Below, in pieces: positions 1-35,992 of a stretch of DNA of 64,000 bases. Every line of letters begins with the position of its first letter. Position 1 is the stretch's first letter. The stretch lies in IMG/VR virus record IMGVR_UViG_3300028048_000077, positions 1-64,000 of that record; one strand, written 5' to 3'. This DNA comes from a virus (lineage: Duplodnaviria > Caudoviricetes). The notes beneath the pieces are model-generated. The model saw nothing but the letters and a program-made list of their open reading frames with translations, was not told the DNA's origin and made no database searches. The position numbers were made by a program, and so were the translations under genes.

Positions 1-266
1 CTCTAAAAGCAAAATCTATTGTACATACATTTGAATTTATATATGATTTTAATGAAGTATTTGTGAATCCATATTTTCCATAATCATTACGATAAGAATG
101 TGCTGCATATACATCTCCCCCCCCCCCTATAACTACCTACTTTTGTATATATTCCTTTTACATCTTCTAAATTATAATTACCACAAGCATCATTTGCATT
201 TCCATCAAATGAATAATACGATACTGTATTTTCATCCACCATTTCGGAAACTGTTGGAAATCTCAT
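1..266 (-). pseudogene. ConA/LamG-like protein, class B paralog, frameshifted at a G11 tract (runs off the window start)
   Basis: ATG at 266 gives MRFPTVSEMVDENTVSYYSFDGNANDACG, homologous to 2754-3461. C11 at 117-127 leads to an early TAA; G10 restores ...GDVYAAHSYRNDYGKYGFTNTSLKSYINSNVCTIDFAFR, matching FINSNACTIDLAF in the paralog. Confidence 0.85.
117..127 (-). repeat. G11 homopolymer, intragenic, out of frame
   Basis: C11 on the + strand. Confidence 0.95.
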
Positions 267-272
267 TATATA

Positions 273-925
273 TCATTCCTTTTTATATCCATATAAATCA
301 TATTCATCTTCATATAAATTATTATATTCTGGATCAAATGATTGATTAACACTAAATTCTTTAGTAATTGGCTTAGAATATATACTTAATCTTTTTATTT
401 TACAATTAGTGTAAGACCCTCCAGATACCCAAGGATCATTACCACCTATATCGAAAAACAAATTATTTATCATAGAACCTGCTGAATTTGCTACAGCACA
501 TAATTTTCCATCAGTAAAAAATCTTACAATATTTTTATTTTCAACAGATACTGTATATCTTCTCCAAGTGTTTATAGGATAACTTATACGCTGGATAATT
601 TGATCAAAATTTCTACCATCATATCCACTACTTTCTTCTATTTTAAATCCAAGATTATTTGAAGTCCAATATGCATTTAATCTTGGATAGTTGCCTTTAT
701 ATTTTATTGGGTAAATAAAATAATCTAATGTATATTCTCGTAAAGTAAAAGATTTAGTCCAATTAAAATTAAAAGTTAAAGTAGAATTAGTTAGAGTACA
801 TTCCCCCCCCCAACTGAAGGGATAGAACCATAATAACTATAGTAAGATTCGTATGTATTGAATTTATCTTTTAATGCATTAGAATTATCATTAAATTCTA
901 ATCGTGAAATACAATTAAGATTCAT
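273..925 (-). pseudogene. ConA/LamG-like protein, class A paralog, frameshifted at a G9 tract
   Basis: GGGAG SD then ATG at 925: MNLNCISRLEFNDNSNALKDK...PSVGGG. C9 at 803-811 leads to TAA three codons later; G10 opens a 217-aa frame that joins ORF 273-473 and aligns with 2086-2742. Confidence 0.85.
803..811 (-). repeat. G9 homopolymer, intragenic, out of frame
   Basis: C9 on the + strand. Confidence 0.95.
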
Positions 926-969
926 AATTTTACACTCCCATATTTAGTTTTATTCAAAGGTCAAAACAT

Positions 970-998
970 ATCCCTCTACCTATTTAAGGTAGAGGGAT
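970..998. terminator. Hairpin of the CCCTCTACC/GGTAGAGGG family
   Basis: ATCCCTCTACC-N7-GGTAGAGGGAT just after the stop of 1004-1402. Confidence 0.75.
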
Positions 999-1003
999 GT
1001 ATT

Positions 1004-1402
1004 TTATTCTTCTGGTTTTTCCCAGCTAATAGAATTTACAAAATATACTTTGTCTACTCCATTACTCTGTTTGATAGTCATAGTATTAATAAAGACTCTA
1101 TATTTAAGATCTGTTATTTTTTTCATTACTTCTTCATTCATTAATCTTCCATCATTGAATACTATATTCAATTCATATTTACCTTCATCAGCATATATCT
1201 CTACACACTCAAGTATATACTTTATGAGCTCATCAATTTTATTTTCATCTCTTAATCTAGTACATTTTCTATTAATACTATATTCTCTTTTTTCATCCCA
1301 ATCATTCTTATTATCTGCTAATCCAGCAGCATCCATAGCAGTCAATACATTTTTTACCACAGTATTCATTTCTTCCATTATATTTTTCCTCCTGATCCCC
1401 AT
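1004..1402 (-). CDS. hypothetical protein
   Basis: ORF track; followed by a terminator hairpin; true start may be the downstream Met. Confidence 0.75.
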   Translation of the reverse strand: MGIRRKNIMEEMNTVVKNVLTAMDAAGLADNKNDWDEKREYSINRKCTRLRDENKIDELIKYILECVEIYADEGKYELNIVFNDGRLMNEEVMKKITDLKYRVFINTMTIKQSNGVDKVYFVNSISWEKPEE

Positions 1403-1464
1403 AAATATAACAATAGACCTATTGAAAATAGTAATAATAACACGTCATCCATTTATATTTCTCC

Positions 1465-1818
1465 TTAGATTTTCTCTATTATTTTCTTCATATCTTCTTT
1501 ATGTTTTTGTAATTTATCATCTACAATAGCTTCCATTTTATTTTTAATCATTAGATCAAATCTTTCAGCGTTAGTTTGAAATGCTATTTTCATAAAATCA
1601 TCTAGTTCAAGATGTTTTAATCTTGTTTCAAGATCATCTATTCTTTTCTCTACATGATCTAACTCATATCTTAAAAGACCAAATAAGATAAATAATATTC
1701 CTATAAAAAGTCCTGATACCACATATCCACCCATTAGTATATCCTCCTTAAATAGATTCCAATTTATTTTCCTATAGTTTTTCTTTTTTATACATTTCCA
1801 TCTTCCCAATGGCTCCAA
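1465..1818 (-). CDS. hypothetical membrane-anchored coiled-coil protein
   Basis: Hydrophobic segment GGYVVSGLFIGILFILFGLL then a coiled coil; AGGAGG SD suggests a start near 1734. Confidence 0.7.
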   Translation of the reverse strand: MEPLGRWKCIKKKNYRKINWNLFKEDILMGGYVVSGLFIGILFILFGLLRYELDHVEKRIDDLETRLKHLELDDFMKIAFQTNAERFDLMIKNKMEAIVDDKLQKHKEDMKKIIEKI

Positions 1819-1991
1819 TCTATTTTTATCATATCAGATGTTCTTTCTATTTTAAATCCTACATCTTCAAAATATTTAAAATCTACTAAAGTTTCAAAGA
1901 AATCTGGATCTTGTATTTCTATATATGTATATCCATTATTATTAACTTTATCTATTTGCTCTAAAAAGAAACTTGTCATATTTTCTTTCAT
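1788..1991 (-). CDS. hypothetical protein
   Basis: ORF track, operon context. Confidence 0.65.
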   Translation of the reverse strand: MKENMTSFFLEQIDKVNNNGYTYIEIQDPDFFETLVDFKYFEDVGFKIERTSDMIKIDWSHWEDGNV

Positions 1992-2055
1992 AGACTCAGC
2001 CCCTATTATATTCTGACTTTTATATAAGTGTAGAATTTAGTGTAATAAGTTACAA

Positions 2056-2085
2056 TTCCCCGAGTAATCGGGGGGGGGTAATTGA
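2056..2085 (+). promoter_or_regulatory. Poly-G ribosome-binding-site hairpin (C4-GA-GTAA-TC-G9-TAATTGA-ATG)
   Basis: G9 at 2070-2078, 7 nt before the ATG at 2086; near-identical copy at 3472-3504. Confidence 0.8.
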
Positions 2086-2742
2086 ATGTTTTTAGAAATG
2101 TTGCATTATTTAGCTTGTGATGATCCATCAAATCCATTAAAAGATAAAGTGGAGGATGGTAATTTATCATCTTTATATGAAGTTTGGGGTGACCCTCCTA
2201 TAGTTCAATCTGATAAATCGTTATATTTAAATCATACTAGCTTACAGTTTAATAGAAATTATTCAAGTATTACAAATAATATGAATTTTACATTTGATAT
2301 GTGGCATAAACGAATTGAAAATGCTCGTACTAATGTATTTTTAGGATTCGGAAATGGAACTTCTTATGTAATTTATATGGCTGGTGGTGGAGCACCAGGA
2401 ATGTATAGTAAAAATTATATAGCTATAAAATATTGGAATGGAGATACATTTGGGTTTGATCATAATTGGCATAGATGGACATTTTCTCATAATCTAAATG
2501 ATAGTACATATAAATATAGAATATTTTTAGATGGAAAATTACTTGGAGCTTTTAATAGTGGTACAAATTTATATTTTGTTATAAATGGTGATTCACCAGA
2601 ATATGGTACTTATAGAGGAGTTGCATACATTAAAAATCTTGGAATATATGGCACTCCAGTTACACAAGAATTTGATATCAATGAAAGATTTGATGAAGGG
2701 CGATATGCTCTTTATAAAAATAATTATTATATGTATGGATAA
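2086..2742 (+). CDS. ConA/LamG-like putative receptor-binding protein, class A (intact)
   Basis: NFTFDMW...WHRWTFS...RIFLDGKLL pattern of LamG beta-sandwiches; shared C-terminal YG motif. Confidence 0.7.
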   Translation: MFLEMLHYLACDDPSNPLKDKVEDGNLSSLYEVWGDPPIVQSDKSLYLNHTSLQFNRNYSSITNNMNFTFDMWHKRIENARTNVFLGFGNGTSYVIYMAGGGAPGMYSKNYIAIKYWNGDTFGFDHNWHRWTFSHNLNDSTYKYRIFLDGKLLGAFNSGTNLYFVINGDSPEYGTYRGVAYIKNLGIYGTPVTQEFDINERFDEGRYALYKNNYYMYG

Positions 2743-2753
2743 AGGTGATATAA

Positions 2754-3461
2754 ATGAGAATACCTACTATATCTCAAATGGTAGATGAAAATACAATAGC
2801 ATATTATCCATTAGATGGTAATTTAAATGACGCTTGTGGTAGTTATAATTTATCAATTAGATCAAGTGGAGATACGATTTGGTGGACTGATATTGGTCAT
2901 TATAGTGGTGGCGGAGAAGCTAAAGCAGTAGCAAGTAGTAGATACTTATATAACTCATCATTAGGATCATTTATAAATTCAAATGCTTGTACTATTGATT
3001 TAGCATTTAATTGGATAAGCCCACAAAATTATAATGTACCAAGTTTATTAAATGCTGGTAGTGGAAATAGTACGTATAATTTAGTAGTTACAAGTAGTGA
3101 AGGTAAATTTGGAGCAAGTTTTAATACACTTCATAATCTAAATAATTCTGGACCATCAGTACCATTTTCTCAAATATATAATAATGGTTATCATCATTTT
3201 GCACTTATTAGAAATAGTAATGTTAGTTTTTCATTTTTCTTAGATGGTAAAAATTTAGGTACTTATAGTTGGAGTTATGGAGTTACTATGAGTAACTTTA
3301 ATTTTAGTGATGGTATGTATTATCATCAATTTGATATAATGTATATAAGAGTATCTAAAGGTATTAGATGGACTGAAGATTTTATAGGTGGTACTCCTAT
3401 AGATGATTTATTTTATACAGTAAAAGAAAAAGATAATGATGCATATGGATTAATATCATAA
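2754..3461 (+). CDS. ConA/LamG-like putative receptor-binding protein, class B (intact)
   Basis: AYYPLDGN, TIDLAFNW, YHHFALIR, FFLDGK, IRVSKGIRWTEDF, typical of phage LamG domains. Confidence 0.75.
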   Translation: MRIPTISQMVDENTIAYYPLDGNLNDACGSYNLSIRSSGDTIWWTDIGHYSGGGEAKAVASSRYLYNSSLGSFINSNACTIDLAFNWISPQNYNVPSLLNAGSGNSTYNLVVTSSEGKFGASFNTLHNLNNSGPSVPFSQIYNNGYHHFALIRNSNVSFSFFLDGKNLGTYSWSYGVTMSNFNFSDGMYYHQFDIMYIRVSKGIRWTEDFIGGTPIDDLFYTVKEKDNDAYGLIS

Positions 3462-3471
3462 TAAAATTATT

Positions 3472-3504
3472 TTCCCCCGAGTAATCGGGGGGGGGGGTAA
3501 TTGA
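3472..3504 (+). promoter_or_regulatory. Poly-G ribosome-binding-site hairpin (C5-GA-GTAA-TC-G11-TAATTGA-ATG)
   Basis: G11 at 3487-3497; duplicate of 2056-2085. Confidence 0.8.
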
Positions 3505-4272
3505 ATGAATATACGAGGAACTGAATATTATGATGCTATAAGCTGGGAAAGTGGATATACTAATGCAACAGTTAAATCTTTTTTAAAATGGGGAGTATAT
3601 CCAGTAAATGCTAGTAGTTTATATGCATATAATGGGTTATATTTACATGAGTTATTTATAGACTATTCACAATTTAATGGAGATACTTTATGTTTAAATT
3701 TTAAATTATATATAATTAAAGATAGTATATCATACTCTACGTATACATCTGATAATAGAGTATATTTGGCTAATCATGTTTGTTTTGTACAATCTCAATT
3801 ATATAATGGATATTCAGTACAACATGAAAAAATTTATAGTTATAATGATGCATATAATTTATTCTTTAATGGCTATAATAATAGTTATGCTGGATATTCT
3901 AACTATACTTTTTCAGTAGAACAAACTGGCCATAACCAATATATGTTATATAGTCATGCAGGATCAAGAAGTAATTTAGTGAACTTTTTACAAAGTGGAT
4001 ATCATATATATTCAATATTATTTAAAAATGGAACAATATCATATATAATAGATGGTGTTATAAAGAAAACTATATCTTGTCCTTTATTAAAATATTTTAT
4101 ATTATTTGGAGCTGTAAGAAGCGGTCATACTTCTAAAATTCAGGAAAATGCTGGAGCATTACAATGGGTTACATTTACTGATAATATATGTTTAGATTTT
4201 CCTACACCACCATATACATTAGAAGAGAAAGATAATGAAGTATATGGATATAAAAAAGAAATAGATGAATAA
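3505..4272 (+). CDS. ConA-like putative receptor-binding protein, class C (intact)
   Basis: YHIYSILFKNGTISYIIDG; C-terminus PPYTLEEKDNEVYGYKKE; paralog of 35253-35992. Confidence 0.65.
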   Translation: MNIRGTEYYDAISWESGYTNATVKSFLKWGVYPVNASSLYAYNGLYLHELFIDYSQFNGDTLCLNFKLYIIKDSISYSTYTSDNRVYLANHVCFVQSQLYNGYSVQHEKIYSYNDAYNLFFNGYNNSYAGYSNYTFSVEQTGHNQYMLYSHAGSRSNLVNFLQSGYHIYSILFKNGTISYIIDGVIKKTISCPLLKYFILFGAVRSGHTSKIQENAGALQWVTFTDNICLDFPTPPYTLEEKDNEVYGYKKEIDE

Positions 4273-4280
4273 AAAAGAAA

Positions 4281-4305
4281 ATCCCTACCCAAATTGGGTA
4301 GGGAT
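4281..4305. terminator. Bidirectional terminator hairpin
   Basis: ATCCCTACCC-AAATT-GGGTAGGGAT between convergent genes. Confidence 0.8.
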
Positions 4306-4310
4306 ACTTT

Positions 4311-4784
4311 TTACAGAGCATATGGGAATAGAACACTACCAGGTTTATAGCTCATATTTTCTTTAAATAAATACCTTATTCCAGGACCTACACCATTATT
4401 ATCTATTCCACATGCAAATCTATCATACGCAATAATTGTAGTACTACCAATCTTTCTTCTACAAATATCTGCATTGAACATGATAGGACAGACTATACTG
4501 TCATAATCATCCATATCTGTATTAGTCAATCTCTGAGTCTTAATATTCTGACACAGAATTTTATCATTGATTTTTAATACAAATACTTCTTGTCGGTCAT
4601 TTAACTTGTTAAGAAGATGCTCCTTAACCTTGTTAATTAATTTGGCCCTGGTATCATACCTAATATCATCATAAAGAATATGTTTATATTTCCCATGAAA
4701 CTTAAACATATCGATATTTGTATATCGGTTGCTATCATGGTTAGGTTTAAATAACCTATTAAATGGGACTAACTGTATTTTCAT
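4311..4784 (-). CDS. hypothetical protein
   Basis: ORF track, AAAGGA SD. Confidence 0.75.
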   Translation of the reverse strand: MKIQLVPFNRLFKPNHDSNRYTNIDMFKFHGKYKHILYDDIRYDTRAKLINKVKEHLLNKLNDRQEVFVLKINDKILCQNIKTQRLTNTDMDDYDSIVCPIMFNADICRRKIGSTTIIAYDRFACGIDNNGVGPGIRYLFKENMSYKPGSVLFPYAL

Positions 4785-4798
4785 ATTATATTCCTTTC

Positions 4799-5284
4799 TT
4801 AATTTAATGTGTCTGAGCTATAGATAATCTGAGGCTCTTCATCCTCACCATAGAAATATTGATCCATTACATTTTCTCCAACAGTTTTATACTCTAAAGA
4901 ATAAGATATCTCTATCTTTTTCTTAAACAATTCTCCAATGAATTGTTCTAAAGCATAAATAGGAGGATAGTCTCCTTCTAATTTTATAATGAAACAATAT
5001 TTATTTTCTATAGGATTATAGATAGAAGAAATATCTTCTACATTAGCTTTGCATATAAAGTTATTAGGATTGAACTCTTCTTTTAAAACACAAGCGAAGA
5101 AGTTTCCTATCCATTTAGAATTGGGATTATTCTTATATATATTCATATTTATTGAATGCACGAATAATCTTTTTAATCCTAATAACATTTTATGATCGGA
5201 TGATATAAAAGCTACTGTAGATTTAATATTTTCCTCCATATGAATCGCCTCCATGCTCAAGCACTTTATATATTGCCATACCAA
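4799..5284 (-). CDS. hypothetical protein
   Basis: ORF track; GGAGG SD suggests a start at MEENIK, near 5239. Confidence 0.7.
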   Translation of the reverse strand: MVWQYIKCLSMEAIHMEENIKSTVAFISSDHKMLLGLKRLFVHSINMNIYKNNPNSKWIGNFFACVLKEEFNPNNFICKANVEDISSIYNPIENKYCFIIKLEGDYPPIYALEQFIGELFKKKIEISYSLEYKTVGENVMDQYFYGEDEEPQIIYSSDTLN

Positions 5285-5395
5285 TAGTTATTACCAGTAT
5301 AGGCCACTGGATGACCATATCATGTATTATACCTGTGTAGACATAGCAAAATAATACAAAGAGCAATACCAAATCATAACCAATGTAAATCATAA

Positions 5396-5785
5396 CTATT
5401 CCTCCTCTTTTAACTTCCTTAAAGCTTCTTCAACACGGCGTTCAACTTCTTCGGCATGTTCTATAGAAGCAATTTTAGAATCTCGTTTTATCTGCAGCAT
5501 TTTTATCTTAGCTATAGCTTTGCCAAGTATCATAGTAGATTCAAAATAATACTTAGTATTAACTGCATTTTTACTAGGATATCCTTCTAAGAACTCAGGT
5601 AATCCATTAATTGCTAAACCAAATGTTATTTGTTGTTCAAAATTGCTGTAGTATTTTCCTGCAATTTTTGAGTCTATATCTTTAGGAGATATATTGATAA
5701 TGGTTTTACATATCATTTCATTATCTAATATATTCTCCTTCACCCACTTTTCTATAATAGATGTTTCTTCTTTTGAGTATTTCAT
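5396..5785 (-). CDS. hypothetical protein
   Basis: ORF track, AGGAGG SD. Confidence 0.75.
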   Translation of the reverse strand: MKYSKEETSIIEKWVKENILDNEMICKTIINISPKDIDSKIAGKYYSNFEQQITFGLAINGLPEFLEGYPSKNAVNTKYYFESTMILGKAIAKIKMLQIKRDSKIASIEHAEEVERRVEEALRKLKEEE

Positions 5786-5798
5786 ATATACCTCCTAA

Positions 5799-6134
5799 TT
5801 ATTTAACAATATCATCGTCTCTATTATATATCTCTTCCCTACTTATAATAATACTATCAATAATATTCATAATTATTTCGTCAAACAATAATGATTTGTG
5901 TTCAATACTCTCAAATTTTGTAAATATTCTATATGTAAATCTATATATTTCTTCAGATGTAAAATCACAAATTATATCGGAATTATATTCAAGAATATAC
6001 TCTTCATCACTATTTTCAGAGTGTACTGCAACTCTAATTTCACCAGTTAGTGTATTACAAAATACATTCTTGATTTTTGGATTTTTGATACTGTTTACAG
6101 CACCTTTAGAAATAAAATAATTGAGAATAAACAT
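5799..6134 (-). CDS. hypothetical protein, first gene after a promoter motif
   Basis: ORF track, AAAGGA SD. Confidence 0.7.
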   Translation of the reverse strand: MFILNYFISKGAVNSIKNPKIKNVFCNTLTGEIRVAVHSENSDEEYILEYNSDIICDFTSEEIYRFTYRIFTKFESIEHKSLLFDEIIMNIIDSIIISREEIYNRDDDIVK

Positions 6135-6205
6135 AATGCATCTTCCTTTCTTTAAAACAAAATATAGTTAATTTTCATAGAGAGTAGCATCATGCTACTC
6201 TCTAC

Positions 6206-6221
6206 TCATATATATAGTATA
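6206..6221 (-). promoter_or_regulatory. Conserved phage promoter motif TATACTATATATATGA (copy 1 of 12)
   Basis: Recurs upstream of operon starts at 10647, 12302, 13727, 24690, 34853, 38227(+), 42642, 54963, 56514, 56768 and 63419. Confidence 0.8.
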
Positions 6222-6235
6222 TGCTTAAAATACTT

Positions 6236-6269
6236 TTTACCCCTTACCCAATTAAGGGTAAGGGGTAAA
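6236..6269. terminator. Terminator hairpin downstream of the tRNA cluster
   Basis: TTTACCCCTTACCC / GGGTAAGGGGTAAA inverted repeat. Confidence 0.7.
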
Positions 6270-6309
6270 GAAGTAAGGACGATTAAAAATTATGAAAAAC
6301 AAAAACAGC

Positions 6310-6363
6310 AAATTTAGTTTAAAGCACTATCACCACGTCAAGGTATTTGCTATTGATAGTGTG
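6310..6363 (-). repeat. 54-bp tRNA 3' trailer repeat, copy 1
   Basis: Identical to 6672-6725 except for one base. Confidence 0.9.
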
Positions 6364-6444
6364 CGAACACTGAGATTCGAACTCAGATGGAGTAAATCCG
6401 TGCGGGCTTAAACCGCATGCGTCTACCAATTCCGCCATGCTCGC
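6362..6444 (-). tRNA. tRNA-Leu(UAA)
   Basis: GCGAGCATGGCGGAATTGGTAGACGC...TTTAAGC...GAGTTCGAATCTC; long variable arm; no encoded CCA. Confidence 0.92.
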
Positions 6445-6580
6445 ATAATATAAAGGAAAACCGAGAAGCTCATTACATACCTTTCCCACATCCATTGTAA
6501 GGATAAAGGCTTTTTAAAAGGAATTACAGAACAAGCTGTTGCATCTCTTTCCCGATTTTTACTGCAACAAAACCTTTATG

Positions 6581-6654
6581 AAACTCCTCTTGGAATTGAA
6601 CCAATCCCCTAATCCAACATAGTTGTTTCAGTCGAAGACCACTCCTCAGGAGCC
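6581..6654 (-). ncRNA. tRNA-like RNA with an atypical anticodon arm
   Basis: Acceptor stem GGCTCCT/AGGAGTT, T-arm TTGG-TTCAATT-CCAA, short D-like hairpin GGAG-TGGT-CTTC. Confidence 0.5.
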
Positions 6655-6671
6655 AAATACTAGTTTTAGTA

Positions 6672-6725
6672 AAATTTAGTTTAAAGCACTATCACCACGT
6701 CAAGGTATTTACTATTGATAGTGTG
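6672..6725 (-). repeat. 54-bp tRNA 3' trailer repeat, copy 2
   Basis: See 6310-6363. Confidence 0.9.
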
Positions 6726-6796
6726 AAGATGATCAGGTTCGAACTGACGACAACTTGATTAAAAGTCAAGTGCTCTACCAACTGAGCTACATCTCC
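6724..6796 (-). tRNA. tRNA-Lys(UUU)
   Basis: GGAGATGTAGCTCAGTTGGTAGAGCACTTGACTTTTAATCAAG...GTTCGAAC; no encoded CCA. Confidence 0.95.
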
Positions 6797-6800
6797 AAAG

Positions 6801-6953
6801 TAGATAATAAAAGCATCCTAACCCATTACGCCACCTTATTCCAGTTTATTTCAGTGATACATTTATTAGTTGACTCGCAATCTAGAATAGCATTCAACTT
6901 AGTTGGTTAGGCGTCTGATGGCCTCACAGAACTTTTATGGCTTTTATTATCTA
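6801..6953 (-). ncRNA. Candidate structured ncRNA upstream of tRNA-Lys
   Basis: Perfect 14-bp closing inverted repeat (6801-6814/6940-6953) with nested CCTAACC/GGTTAGG and AGTTGA/TCAACT stems. Confidence 0.45.
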
Positions 6954-6980
6954 ATATTATGTATTAGTATTTATAAATTA

Positions 6981-7181
6981 TTATTTTTGACAGGCTATTT
7001 TCCAAACTCCTAATATAATAAATCCAATCAATGGCCATTCTAATGAATTATTCATTATACATGAATAAGTATATCCAAATATACTTATGAAGTATATCCA
7101 ATCAAAAATCTTATTATTAAAACCCATAATTATTTCTCCTAAAAAATAAAGGGCTCCGAGGAGCCCAATATTAGAATTCAA
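6981..7181 (-). CDS. small hydrophobic hypothetical protein
   Basis: ORF track; GGAG SD suggests a start at MGFNNK. Confidence 0.5.
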   Translation of the reverse strand: MNSNIGLLGALYFLGEIIMGFNNKIFDWIYFISIFGYTYSCIMNNSLEWPLIGFIILGVWKIACQK

Positions 7182-9492
7182 AGCTTGCCATATCTACATC
7201 TTCTAATAAACAAGACAGATTGGACTGAATATCTCTAATCTCCTGAATCTGCTTCTTAATATCCTGTACAGTAAGCTGTAATAAAGCTCTGTCATAGTTA
7301 GGATGTATAGTAGATATACGCAAATCCTGAGCTGGCATTTCACCAAGACCCTTATATCTCTGAATACTGCTAGGACGGAACTTCTCAAATGCCATCATAA
7401 CATCATACAGAGTAGCTGGTTTACCATTCAGATAATAAAGCTCTAAAGAAGTATCGATATACTGATATAATGGTGCACATACAGAATACAATGTAGGAGT
7501 ACATACTATATTATAGAACTGCTCTCCTACTAATCCATCAAGTACTAAGGTTCCATTCATGTTCTTTACATCCATGAATCTATATTTAGACTTAATGAAC
7601 TTCATCATCCAGCTAATAGGTTTCTTTCTATACCTGATAAGGAACTCTAAAAGCTGAGGATCAATTGCATATGTATTTGCAAGTACAGTAAGCTCATCAA
7701 TATATGAAGCATTATTATACAGCATTGAAGTGATATCACTATTCTTAATTACCTTCTTCTTGCTATCACGAAGCTCATAAGATTTAGTAAAGCTAGTCTG
7801 AAGGAACTTAGTATAATCACTCTTATCAGTGAAGAATACTTTCTTCTTATTCTTGATAATGCTATACAAAGGTGGCTGAGCCATATATACTCTACCATCT
7901 TCAATCAGTGGTCTGAAGTACATCAAGAACAGCTTCATCAATAACTGTCTGATATTTTTACCATCTGGATCTGCATCTCCAGCGAAGATAATCTTATCAA
8001 ACTTACACTTAGAGATATCAAAATTCTTACCAATTCCACACCCAATGATGGCTGCAATACCACAGACCTCTTCATTCTTCATAACAGCTTCTTTACTGTT
8101 AGTGAATGCATTAATGATCTTTCCTCTAATAGGGAATATACCCTGCTTATTAGGATCAATTGCATCTTTCAATGAGGATACTGCAGAATCACCCTCTGCT
8201 ATGATAAGCTCTAAATTCTTCTTACCAGCAGGAGGGAAATATTTCTTAGGTAAACCAAATGCTGATACTTTCACTCGTTTGATGAAGTTAGTCTTATTGC
8301 TTTCTTCACTCAACCGTAGATCGGCAGTATCTTTGTAGTACTTACACAACCGTTGCAAGTCATTTGCATTAAACTTGCACCATTCATCTAACTGGCTCTC
8401 AAGAGTAGTCTTTATGAAAGCTTCTACACCTTCACCTGAGAATATCTCTTTAGCCTGACCAGAGAAAATTGGTTCCAAATGTGATACCGTTACCACTGCT
8501 TTCATACCAGAAAGTATATCGTTACCAATACACTTAGTCTTTCCCTTAGTTAGATAAATTTTGTTCATGTAGTTTCGGAAGTAATTACTCAATGCATTAA
8601 TGAATCCCTTAACATGCTCGGACTGACCGTTCACTGTTGGACACATGTTAGCAAATGAGATAATATCTGCTTCCTCTCCAAGACACTTGCTGTCATATGT
8701 GAATGCTATCTCACATTTAATGGTACCATTATCATCCTTAATTATAATTGGAGATATTACTGGATTATCACACTTAGCAATTAAAAATGACAGAATACCA
8801 TCCTGATTTACCAGAGTCTCTTCAATAACAGACCCATCTTTCTTTACTCCTCTGAAGTACAGTGTATTACCAACTCCTGGAGTTGTAAGGTATAATATAG
8901 TAGAAGCCAGATGTAATACATCTTCACATGTAGTATTGAGATTCTTCATTACATCTAAAGATGGAACAAATGTTACTATACTACCCTGATACTTGTTAGG
9001 ATTAGGAATCTTAACCTCACCCTTCTTCCAAGGATGACCATCATGGAATTCTACTTTTCTTGCATCTCCTGTATACAAATAGGTTTCTGCAATAAATATC
9101 TTAGAACATGCATTGGTTACCTTACTACCAACACCATGTCTTCCTGAAGAATACTCTCCAAGTTTCTTTACATAGTTAGAAGATGTATGCTGTTTAGTGA
9201 ATACTCGTTCAATGTGACCAAACGGAATACCACGGCCATTATCTCTAACCTTACACATCATAGTGTTTTCATCATACTCAAGCCACAATGAATCACATGG
9301 AGAATCTTTCTTTTCCATTTCATCGAAGCTATTCTGAATTATCTCTCGGATCATATTAATATGACCACGAGTATCATTATATCCAAGATACTGTCCTACT
9401 GTCTTTCGTACAGCATCTACGAATGATGCAATCGTTTTAATTTGATTAGCGTAATCTAAAATCTGATCTGCAAACTCTTTAGCTTTAGCCAA
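7171..9492 (-). CDS. gyrB: DNA topoisomerase IIA subunit B (GyrB/ParE-like)
   Basis: GHKL motifs EIIQNSFDE, DNGRGIP, GRHGVG; TOPRIM EGDSA, PIRGK, DADPDG; QRYKGLGEM; TTG start. Confidence 0.95.
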   Translation of the reverse strand: MAKAKEFADQILDYANQIKTIASFVDAVRKTVGQYLGYNDTRGHINMIREIIQNSFDEMEKKDSPCDSLWLEYDENTMMCKVRDNGRGIPFGHIERVFTKQHTSSNYVKKLGEYSSGRHGVGSKVTNACSKIFIAETYLYTGDARKVEFHDGHPWKKGEVKIPNPNKYQGSIVTFVPSLDVMKNLNTTCEDVLHLASTILYLTTPGVGNTLYFRGVKKDGSVIEETLVNQDGILSFLIAKCDNPVISPIIIKDDNGTIKCEIAFTYDSKCLGEEADIISFANMCPTVNGQSEHVKGFINALSNYFRNYMNKIYLTKGKTKCIGNDILSGMKAVVTVSHLEPIFSGQAKEIFSGEGVEAFIKTTLESQLDEWCKFNANDLQRLCKYYKDTADLRLSEESNKTNFIKRVKVSAFGLPKKYFPPAGKKNLELIIAEGDSAVSSLKDAIDPNKQGIFPIRGKIINAFTNSKEAVMKNEEVCGIAAIIGCGIGKNFDISKCKFDKIIFAGDADPDGKNIRQLLMKLFLMYFRPLIEDGRVYMAQPPLYSIIKNKKKVFFTDKSDYTKFLQTSFTKSYELRDSKKKVIKNSDITSMLYNNASYIDELTVLANTYAIDPQLLEFLIRYRKKPISWMMKFIKSKYRFMDVKNMNGTLVLDGLVGEQFYNIVCTPTLYSVCAPLYQYIDTSLELYYLNGKPATLYDVMMAFEKFRPSSIQRYKGLGEMPAQDLRISTIHPNYDRALLQLTVQDIKKQIQEIRDIQSNLSCLLEDVDMASFEF

Positions 9493-35252: not shown

Positions 35253-35992
35253 TTATACCTCCTTTTTATAACCATACACTTCATTATCTTTCTCATCTAA
35301 TATATATGGTGGTCTTGGAACATCTGTACTCATTTGATCAGTAAGAGTAATATATTCTATAGAAGAATAAAGATTTCTAGCATTTACAGAATTACCACCA
35401 TAACAATGACCAATAACAAATGATTTATAATTATCTCCACTTCTAGTACCTAAGTGATTACCATTCATATAGAAATCAAATGTATTATCTACTATATGTA
35501 CACTAAAGTTATTATATTCTCCAGAAGCAGTTCTACCTATATTAATACCATTACTATTAGATTCACATAATGCATTAGAACTATTTACTGATAAAGTATT
35601 AGGATTAGATCCTAAACTAGCAAACACAGGTGCGGGTGTTCTACCATTGCTATAAGGCATAGCTGTAGAATCAGTATATATGTATTCATCTGTAATAGCA
35701 TTAGTTCCTGTAGAATTTATATGTGGCATAAAATAACCAATTTTTTCTCCATCACCACGACCATTATATCTAATTATCTGTATAAAACTATATCTAAAAT
35801 TTACCCATATATCATTACCATTAAACAAAGTATATTTAAATGCTAAAGCATGTATATATAAACCACCATATTGATACATATTAGCTGTATCTACTACCCA
35901 AGGAGAATATTCCAAATATGTTTTAGCAGAGCGGTTAGTTGTCCCCCCCCCCAATCAATTATATCATAATATTCGATTCCTCGTACATTCAT
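35253..35992 (-). pseudogene. ConA-like class C paralog, frameshifted at a G10 tract
   Basis: ATG at 35992: MNVRGIEYYDIIDW then G10 (35943-35952). G11 gives WGGGTTN, aligning with WESGYTN of 3505-4272 and joining ORF 35253-35954. Confidence 0.85.
35943..35952 (-). repeat. G10 homopolymer, intragenic, out of frame
   Basis: C10 on the + strand. Confidence 0.95.

Follow-up and report, generated by a model that had tools for sequence, protein, structure and literature searches.

A conserved hairpin leader in a jumbo-like phage of the cattle gut, in which a poly-G tract may act as a length-tunable ribosome-binding site

Repeat-driven phase variation is well known in bacterial pathogens. Among phages, one group is said to vary phase by such repeats, through frameshifts in coding tracts, and the tracts of Campylobacter phages reportedly lie inside reading frames. 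In RNA thermometers of the FourU type, a run of U residues pairs with the Shine-Dalgarno (SD) sequence and blocks binding of the 30S subunit until temperature opens the hairpin. Here we describe a leader element that stands before two genes, A (2086..2742) and C (3505..4272), both on the plus strand of a 64,000-nucleotide stretch of phage DNA (hereafter the window), which comprises positions 1-64000 of the 128,771-bp IMG/VR virus record IMGVR_UViG_3300028048_000077. In this element, a G tract appears to be both one arm of a hairpin and the SD sequence of the gene that follows. Judging from the sequences and from modeled folds, we see about an even chance that the two elements are copies of a conserved, cis-acting leader that sequesters its own SD sequence and tunes translation through tract length. 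The resemblance to FourU thermometers is that a run of U residues (here of U and C) pairs with the SD, but the variable in the phage would be a heritable tract length, and the cattle gut is thermally constant.

Hypermutable polyG tracts have been described in Campylobacter phages (Sorensen et al. 2021, as cited in PMC10877375 and PMC12823448). As with those phages, G homopolymers in the present phage could be a source of phenotypic diversity, with five coding tracts found in paralogues for putative surface proteins. In contrast to them, two of the seven tracts here are located in a 5′ untranslated region (5′UTR), at the SD position and within a hairpin, and both host and lineage differ, this being a cattle-gut, jumbo-like phage. 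In Helicobacter pylori, a G-repeat in the tlpB leader is targeted by the small RNA (sRNA) RepG, and repeat length gives graded post-transcriptional control (PMC8295292). There too, a length-variable G run in a leader pairs with a C/U-rich strand. However, the strand in that system is the loop of a trans-acting sRNA and the G-repeat lies far upstream of the ribosome-binding site, whereas in the phage a cis strand stands at a distance of 8 nucleotides (nt), and nothing but the G run resembles an SD. In Mycobacterium tuberculosis espR, a single added G in a 5′UTR tract makes a G/C hairpin longer and changes the fold of the leader, and a reporter showed that translation rises (PMC11898584). The phage leaders likewise hold a 5′UTR G tract within a G/C hairpin, but in them a single set of nucleotides is both tract and SD. 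Because G tracts in 5′UTRs alter translation in these two cases (PMC11898584, PMC8295292), we count them as precedent in support of the proposed function.

A further parallel is offered by Haemophilus influenzae hmw1A, whose 5′UTR heptamer repeats form a long hairpin with a G-rich arm that is cut by RNase III, with expression depending on repeat number (PMC12721329). In both settings a transcribed 5′UTR repeat forms one arm of a hairpin. The hmw1A repeat is a heptamer, its hairpin involves 10 repeat units, and control is exerted by RNase III, whereas the phage element has a mononucleotide run, a predicted hairpin of 16 pairs, and no known processing. Length-variable 5′UTR repeats (poly-G or heptamer) that alter expression post-transcriptionally are known already, as are phage poly-G switches. 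Within open-access text, we found no described case in which the repeat is itself the SD and is paired in cis, nor any such case in a phage leader.

The leader element of gene A extends from 2048 to 2085 (+) and has a predicted minimum free energy (MFE) of −18.8 kcal/mol (z score −3.5). It is composed of an outer helix arm AGTTAC (2048-2053), TT plus C4 (2056-2061, the C4 being 2058-2061), GA (2062-2063), a GTAA loop (2064-2067), TC (2068-2069), a G9 tract (2070-2078) that is the presumed SD, and the spacer TAATTGA (2079-2085), which is followed by the ATG at 2086. The leader element of gene C (3465..3504, +) fills the 43-bp intergenic gap between genes B and C and has the same parts: an outer arm AATTA (3465-3469), T4 plus C5 (3470-3478, the C5 being 3474-3478), GA (3479-3480), a GTAA loop (3481-3484), TC (3485-3486), a G11 tract (3487-3497), and TAATTGA (3498-3504), with the ATG at 3505. 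In each leader, G residues directly trail the stem and lead into TAATTGA. An earlier note on this DNA, made from its letters and without database searches, had pointed to this module before both genes (C4/G9 for A, C5/G11 for C), and it is read directly and exactly in the sequence as TTCCCC-GA-GTAA-TC-G9-TAATTGA-ATG (2056-2088) and TT-CCCCC-GA-GTAA-TC-G11-TAATTGA-ATG (3473-3507).

Identity between the two copies is confined to the segment from TTCCCC to ATG, and the flanks on both sides are unrelated. The 16-mer CCCCGAGTAATCGGGG occurs exactly twice in the window, where 0.01 occurrences are expected, and twice in the whole record; a genome search of the kind that the note had suggested thus places this core only at the two leaders. 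Genome-wide searches for diverged copies of the spacer or of GAGTRATC likewise found only these two sites.

The note also described a CCCCGA/TCGGGG stem that closes a GNRA tetraloop. That core is present, but the stem extends beyond it. In the predicted fold, additional G residues form G·U pairs with U residues on the 5′ side of the C run, and an outer helix (AGUUAC/GUAAUU in A, AAUUA/UAAUU in C) reaches over the whole tract, with its end 2-3 nt short of the AUG. For the A and C leaders, MFE values are about −18.5 to −19 kcal/mol. Comparison of sequences at 1900-3700 with the covariance models of Rfam 15 gave no match at E values up to 1.

In four related contigs from metagenomes, homologues of gene C have this module before them, at protein identities as low as 32% (P0002, 94%; P0001, 75%; P0006 and P0008, about 32%). 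In contig L005 (94% to C), the arm is CTCCC, the loop is GTAA, and a G9 tract is followed by TAATTAA-ATG. Contig L004 (75%) has the arm CTCCCC, the loop GTGA, and G10 followed by TAATTAAA-TTG, and contig L013 (32%) has CCCT, GTAA, and G10 followed by TAATTGAA-TTG. The last of the four, L009 (32%), starts inside the tract and shows at least G9 before TAATTGA-ATG. All five complete leaders (A, C, L005, L004, and L013) adopt the same two-tier fold in prediction, with MFE values of −16 to −19 kcal/mol and z scores of −1.8 to −3.8, and RNAalifold yields a consensus structure of 16 pairs that covers the tract. In each of the five, the SD position is kept inside the paired region of the predicted stem-loop adjoining the start codon. 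Every stem difference among them is a change from C to U that retains a G·U pair, and the loop change from GTAA to GTGA remains GNRA. From the aligned sequences, these changes fit selection on RNA structure rather than on DNA. Furthermore, the element is found only before genes of a single family, in which the remaining members have switches of the coding-tract type, and not before unrelated genes at random, a distribution that the note had named as speaking against its idea.

To judge the G run as an SD, we surveyed 115 long open reading frames (ORFs) and took a match of at least 5 nt to AAGGAGGTGAT as canonical. By this measure 76 of the 115 have a canonical SD, most commonly 7 nt before the start, and both leader tracts end 7 nt before the ATG. 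As had been noted earlier, no other SD of the AGGAGG type is found between tract and ATG. Elsewhere in the genome, a bare G5 located 7-8 nt from the start is the sole SD-like sequence for genes of 768, 1235, 774, and 736 amino acids (aa), and the computed duplex with a 16S 3′ end is −7.8 kcal/mol for GGGGG versus −8.7 kcal/mol for GGAGG. A class C paralogue carries AAGGGA at the place where gene C carries G11. By analogy with these genes, the assignment of the tract as the probable ribosome-binding site of A and C appears well founded.

Each tract is followed by stops in all three frames (TAA, TGA, and then TAG or TGA, the third within six codons), and no upstream ATG, GTG, or TTG that would open a frame through the tract was found. 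The tract is therefore located in a true 5′UTR, and on the same grounds we ruled out read-through or an upstream ORF passing through it. The starts of A and C are further backed by paralogues with N-termini of the same length (926-276, minus strand, for A; 35992-35256, minus strand, for C). The alignment of gene A with its paralogue begins at residue 1, with SN-LKDK equally placed in both, and gene C, its paralogue, and four database homologues all start with M-N/K-I/V/L-R/K/N-G-x-E-Y. Since the element is present both before the first gene of the operon (A) and before an internal one (C), its role is tied to the downstream gene and not to the 3′ end of the gene upstream.

Long G or C runs fall into one length class in this record of 30% G+C. 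There are seven of 9-11 nt and none of 6-8. A count of seven-G words gave 20 against 0.48 expected. The G9 and G11 leader tracts exceed the length expected from the composition of such DNA. All seven runs are in or just before LamG/ConA-like paralogues. Five are coding and fall within the first ~15-45 codons, the classical position for a frameshift switch (127-117, 811-803, 35952-35943, and 74770-74762 on the minus strand and 74939-74948 on the plus strand, the last two beyond the window). Only two, those of A and C, are in a leader.

Length variants were read from Logan contigs of four public runs (X1-X4), drawn from different studies, over region 1-4400; the samples hold several strains. The A tract is G11 in X1, X3, and X4 versus G9 in the window, and the C tract is G10 in X1 and X2 versus G11 in the window. 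In X1 and X2 there is also a C-to-T change at 3475 (giving CTCCC), and contigs from the four runs break at the tracts. Tract length differs among the relatives as well (G9, G10, and G10). At the level of contigs, then, the tracts are not invariant (G9/G11 at A, G11/G10 at C), invariance being another outcome that the note had set against its proposal. What these contig sequences show is evolutionary lability, not within-clone switching.

The ensemble energy required to free positions −13 to +13 was computed for tracts of n = 4-16, with the 76 genes of the genome that have confident starts as a reference (median 6.6, 90th percentile 10.3, and 95th percentile 12.0 kcal/mol). For leader A, this opening energy is 14.4 kcal/mol at G8, 11.6 at G9, 8.3 at G10, and 7.5 at G11, and it is flat beyond. 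For leader C, it is 15.2 kcal/mol at G9, about 10 at G10, and 5.8 at G11, again flat beyond. The shift is ~4 kcal/mol per observed length step. From the computed energies, the observed alleles therefore straddle the steep part of each curve, ranging from "typical" to "top-decile closed". The earlier proposal that the number of unpaired G residues sets SD accessibility agrees in direction with these folds, where longer tracts open and shorter tracts close, but the predicted response is graded, like that of a rheostat, and not on/off.

We offer the following model in conditional form. The G tract would be the 3′ arm of a two-tier hairpin and at the same time the sole SD of the downstream gene. 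The hairpin would consist of a pyrimidine run and GA, a GNRA loop, and UC and the G run, set inside an outer helix of the AAUUA/UAAUU type. Replication slippage would alter the number of G residues. Those in excess of the C/U run would enter an internal loop, so that the outer helix is weakened and G residues are freed 7 nt before the AUG. A longer tract would thus expose the ribosome site, and a shorter one would bury it. The outcome would be a heritable, reversible, and graded translation setting for the lectin-like proteins A and C, beside the on/off frameshift tracts in five paralogues. We infer both that the hairpin folds in the cell and that tract length alters protein output. A broader proposal is that one mononucleotide repeat serves as mutational hotspot, SD, and the stem arm that opposes accessibility, and thereby as a graded dial on two lectin-like, probably host-binding proteins; that, together with the five frameshift tracts, it lets one phage population show many combinations and doses of surface lectins; and that the module, conserved to about 30% protein identity, is old. 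To this we assign a probability slightly short of even.

The contig L013 provides a gene that is relevant in this regard. At L013:617-686, a class C gene has both a leader G10 in a hairpin and, at codon ~16, a coding G7; a coding G10 is present in the gene that follows. Two switch types can therefore coexist on one gene.

Several points weigh against the proposed length-tunable leader. The predicted effect depends on weak U·G pairs, and if only the core stem forms, then 4-7 G residues are free in every observed allele, which is enough for an SD, and the effect of length would be small or modest. Even the most closed native allele, A with G9, is at 11.6 kcal/mol still inside the range of other phage genes. 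The contigs that show the length variants were assembled from mixed strains, and single-nucleotide polymorphisms accompany the variants. Lastly, 0 of the 16 pairs changed on both sides, the only changes being one-sided, from C-G to U·G. The data thus agree with the structure, but covariation does not prove it; within a homopolymer, any alignment leaves the pairing register ambiguous.

Perhaps, then, the G run is long only because a hairpin arm abuts a G5-type SD, and the hairpin has some other job in the mRNA, with slippage tolerated and of no regulatory consequence. Such a job might be that of a 5′ stabilizer, an intercistronic processing or RNase III site, or a cistron insulator. On this account, which counts against our own, 9-11 G residues are explicable as a 4-5 nt arm plus a 5-6 nt SD without selection for mutability. 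It would suit the use of G5 alone as an apparent SD elsewhere in the genome, the remainder of 4-7 residues that is left in all alleles when the core-stem C/U pairs are subtracted from the tract, and the lack of covariation. There is also the example of the H. influenzae hmw 5′UTR hairpin, which is processed by RNase III (PMC12721329). However, a mere stem arm would not be expected to keep to a gene family with coding-tract switches, one member of which (in L013) has both tract kinds. Nor does it sit well with an unbroken run of 9-11 G residues that is kept, in DNA of 30% G+C, by homologues as distant as 32% protein identity, or with a computed accessibility that moves by ~4 kcal/mol per observed step. 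We regard this alternative as unlikely, but as the main rival.

Most intergenic homopolymer switches known act on promoters, as for Neisseria porA and opc, Bordetella fim, and Treponema tpr. The tract could similarly act on transcription or at the DNA level, through promoter spacing or the start region of host or phage RNA polymerase, or as an attenuator, in which case mRNA level would change. The promoter region around copy A is indeed divergent, spans 94 bp, and has a TAGAAT box (2031-2036), and in a relative, contig L014, a G9 tract is located 57 nt upstream of a gene with an SD of its own. However, copy C is intercistronic and within an operon, 41 nt past the gene B stop, and a tract ending 7 nt before the ATG leaves little room, since a promoter spanning it would give a transcript without a start codon. 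The changes from C to U that keep G·U pairs also point to RNA and not to DNA, the spacer motif is not recurrent upstream, and the promoter-like motif TATACTATAtATATGA described below is absent here. Attenuation fares no better, because no T run is found 3′ of the hairpin on either strand and the terminator scan is negative. Overall, an action on transcription seems improbable.

The L014 tract (L014:2964-2972, also seen in L015) is in a divergent intergenic region, and the SD of the gene 57 nt downstream is GGAGG. Read as poly-C, the same tract is 29 nt upstream of a class C gene, which has a G10 in its coding part as well. The tract thus occupies a third kind of position, which may be that of a promoter-type switch.

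An intrinsic terminator was likewise considered for the two hairpins and rejected. There is no T run after either one on either strand, and the scan calls only 968-1000 and 4281-4305. Related words do occur in terminators of unrelated contigs: CCCCCCGAGTAATCGGGGGG followed by a T run in L003, and on the opposite strand in L007, represents plain terminators, and stem-word matches in L006 and L008 are unrelated GC-rich DNA. In contrast to the CCCCCCGAGTAATCGGGGGG terminators, the leaders have no T run, and their G runs are followed at 7 nt by a start codon. Terminators proper to the phage are built on another stem, ATCCCTACCC...GGGTAGGGAT. The bidirectional terminators that flank clusters of lectin genes share this stem family (ATCCCTACCC / GGGTAGGGAT and variants), and they are located at 968-1000 and 4281-4305 in the window and at ~74110-74150 and ~75590-75625 in the genome.

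The strongly conserved, promoter-like motif TATACTATAtATATGA has ~25 copies in the genome, with A/T-rich DNA 5′ of it and often a hairpin immediately after. Examples in the window, all on the minus strand, are at 6221, 10662, 12317, 13742, 24705, 34868, 42659, 54978, 56529, 56783, and 63434. The motif probably serves as promoter for an RNA polymerase that the phage either encodes or redirects, and it is not present upstream of gene A.

It is very improbable that the tract is instead the target of a C/U-rich RNA acting in trans, in the manner of RepG, with length setting the pairing outcome (an effect that could also add to that of the cis hairpin): besides the RepG precedent (PMC8295292), the genome has at 86,947-87,250 two tandem units without an ORF but with the TATACTATAtATATGA promoter motif and strong terminators, the second of which contains CACCTCCTTTC and CATCTCCTTTC, but any SD of the phage would be a pairing partner for these sequences, which have no specificity for G tracts, and a C/U partner in cis is present and conserved in every full copy. 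The sequence CACCTCCTTTC is identical to a 16S rRNA 3′ end. On that basis, the ORF-less units are candidate small RNAs that mimic the anti-SD and could in principle pair with G-rich leaders.

Turning to the genes themselves, A, B, and C form an operon with the order divergent 94-bp region, leader A, A, B, leader C, C, and a bidirectional intrinsic terminator (4281..4305). Gene A, the first, encodes a putative LamG/ConA-like jelly-roll protein of 218 aa. Its features match viral Laminin_G_3 clusters at 0.98 (Atlas), and its C-terminal ~95 residues are 37% identical to the paralogue at 926-276 (minus strand). Gene B (2754..3461, +) encodes 235 aa of paralogue class B. It lacks a long tract, its SD (AGGTGAT) is of the ordinary kind, and GGT, GGC, and GGA codons are mixed in its Gly run. 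Gene C, which encodes 255 aa and defines a member of paralogue class C, is probably a ConA-like or GH16-like jelly roll, as suggested by a weak structural likeness to GH16 models (TM score 0.58; Atlas). A single-sequence AlphaFold model of this protein is unusable (pLDDT 31). Searches of genes A, B, and C against Pfam and PHROGs gave no match, and for A and B no database relative was found besides themselves. The class A paralogue of gene A passes the Pfam cut-off for PF13385, scoring 34 bits at 812-276 (minus strand) against a cut-off of 27.6.

Four paralogues within the window deserve comment. The class A paralogue (276..926, −) has its G9 tract (811-803) within codons ~39-41, out of frame as assembled, and represents a frameshift-type switch. 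At 803-811, a Logan contig of run X1 has C11 versus C9 in the window; by frame count neither restores the frame, and G10 would. The class B paralogue at 1..266 (−), which runs off the contig end, has a G11 tract (127-117) in a Gly run and is likewise out of frame as assembled. The class C paralogue (35256..35992, −) has its G10 tract (35952-35943) in codons ~17-20, and its SD, AAGGGA, is 8 nt before the ATG. Another class B paralogue (36725-36006, −) has an in-frame TGA at codon 18 (36674-36672), where gene B has TAT. The rest of its frame is open and 36% identical to B, and an interrupted GGTGGGGGTGGG stands at the site of the G11 tract in paralogue 266-1. From its sequence, this gene would be either a pseudogene or dependent on read-through.

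Some paralogues carry pieces that resemble the leader. In the gene at 74817-74149 (minus strand), AGTAATC is found 5′ of the coding tract (genome 74762-74777), as it is before both leader tracts (2063-2078 and 3480-3497), and AGATTAC, which is inverted relative to GTAATC, is found after it. This arrangement hints that the tract and its 5′ flank may have moved between paralogues. In the class C paralogue, TAATTGATTG (35961-35952, minus strand) is directly 5′ of the coding G10, and the leaders have TAATTGAATG directly 3′ of the tract. This placement may be due to chance or may be a trace of the origin of the leader.

The phage itself is far from any named relative. The record has a CheckV completeness of 52%, and among its products are topoisomerase II subunits of phage type, a DnaB-like helicase, and structural proteins of the virion. 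The nearest named relatives are very distant jumbo phages, with GyrB ~26% identical to those of AR9, PBS1, and vB_BpuM-BpSp. Among 50,697 phage records, neither megablast with positions 1-8000 nor tblastn with gene A found a match, and a search of IMG/VR with genes B and C found no related loci. Three public runs each contain more than half of the sampled words of the locus. They are bovine-gut metagenomes from two studies, one of which runs may be the sample that the record came from, and no RNA run is listed as containing the locus.

If the proposed function is correct, then the element would represent a second compact mode of repeat-driven variation, in which the repeat is the ribosome-binding site and a pyrimidine strand in cis turns repeat number into protein dose. 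Its simplicity is apparent, as it comprises ~40 nt and one variable number. There is also a lesson for annotation: annotators of AT-rich phage genomes should not write off poly-G immediately ahead of a start codon as sequencing noise. More broadly, the leaders would extend contingency loci to uncultured gut jumbo phages, and a phage so equipped would hedge over which putative receptor-binding lectins it makes and in what quantity.

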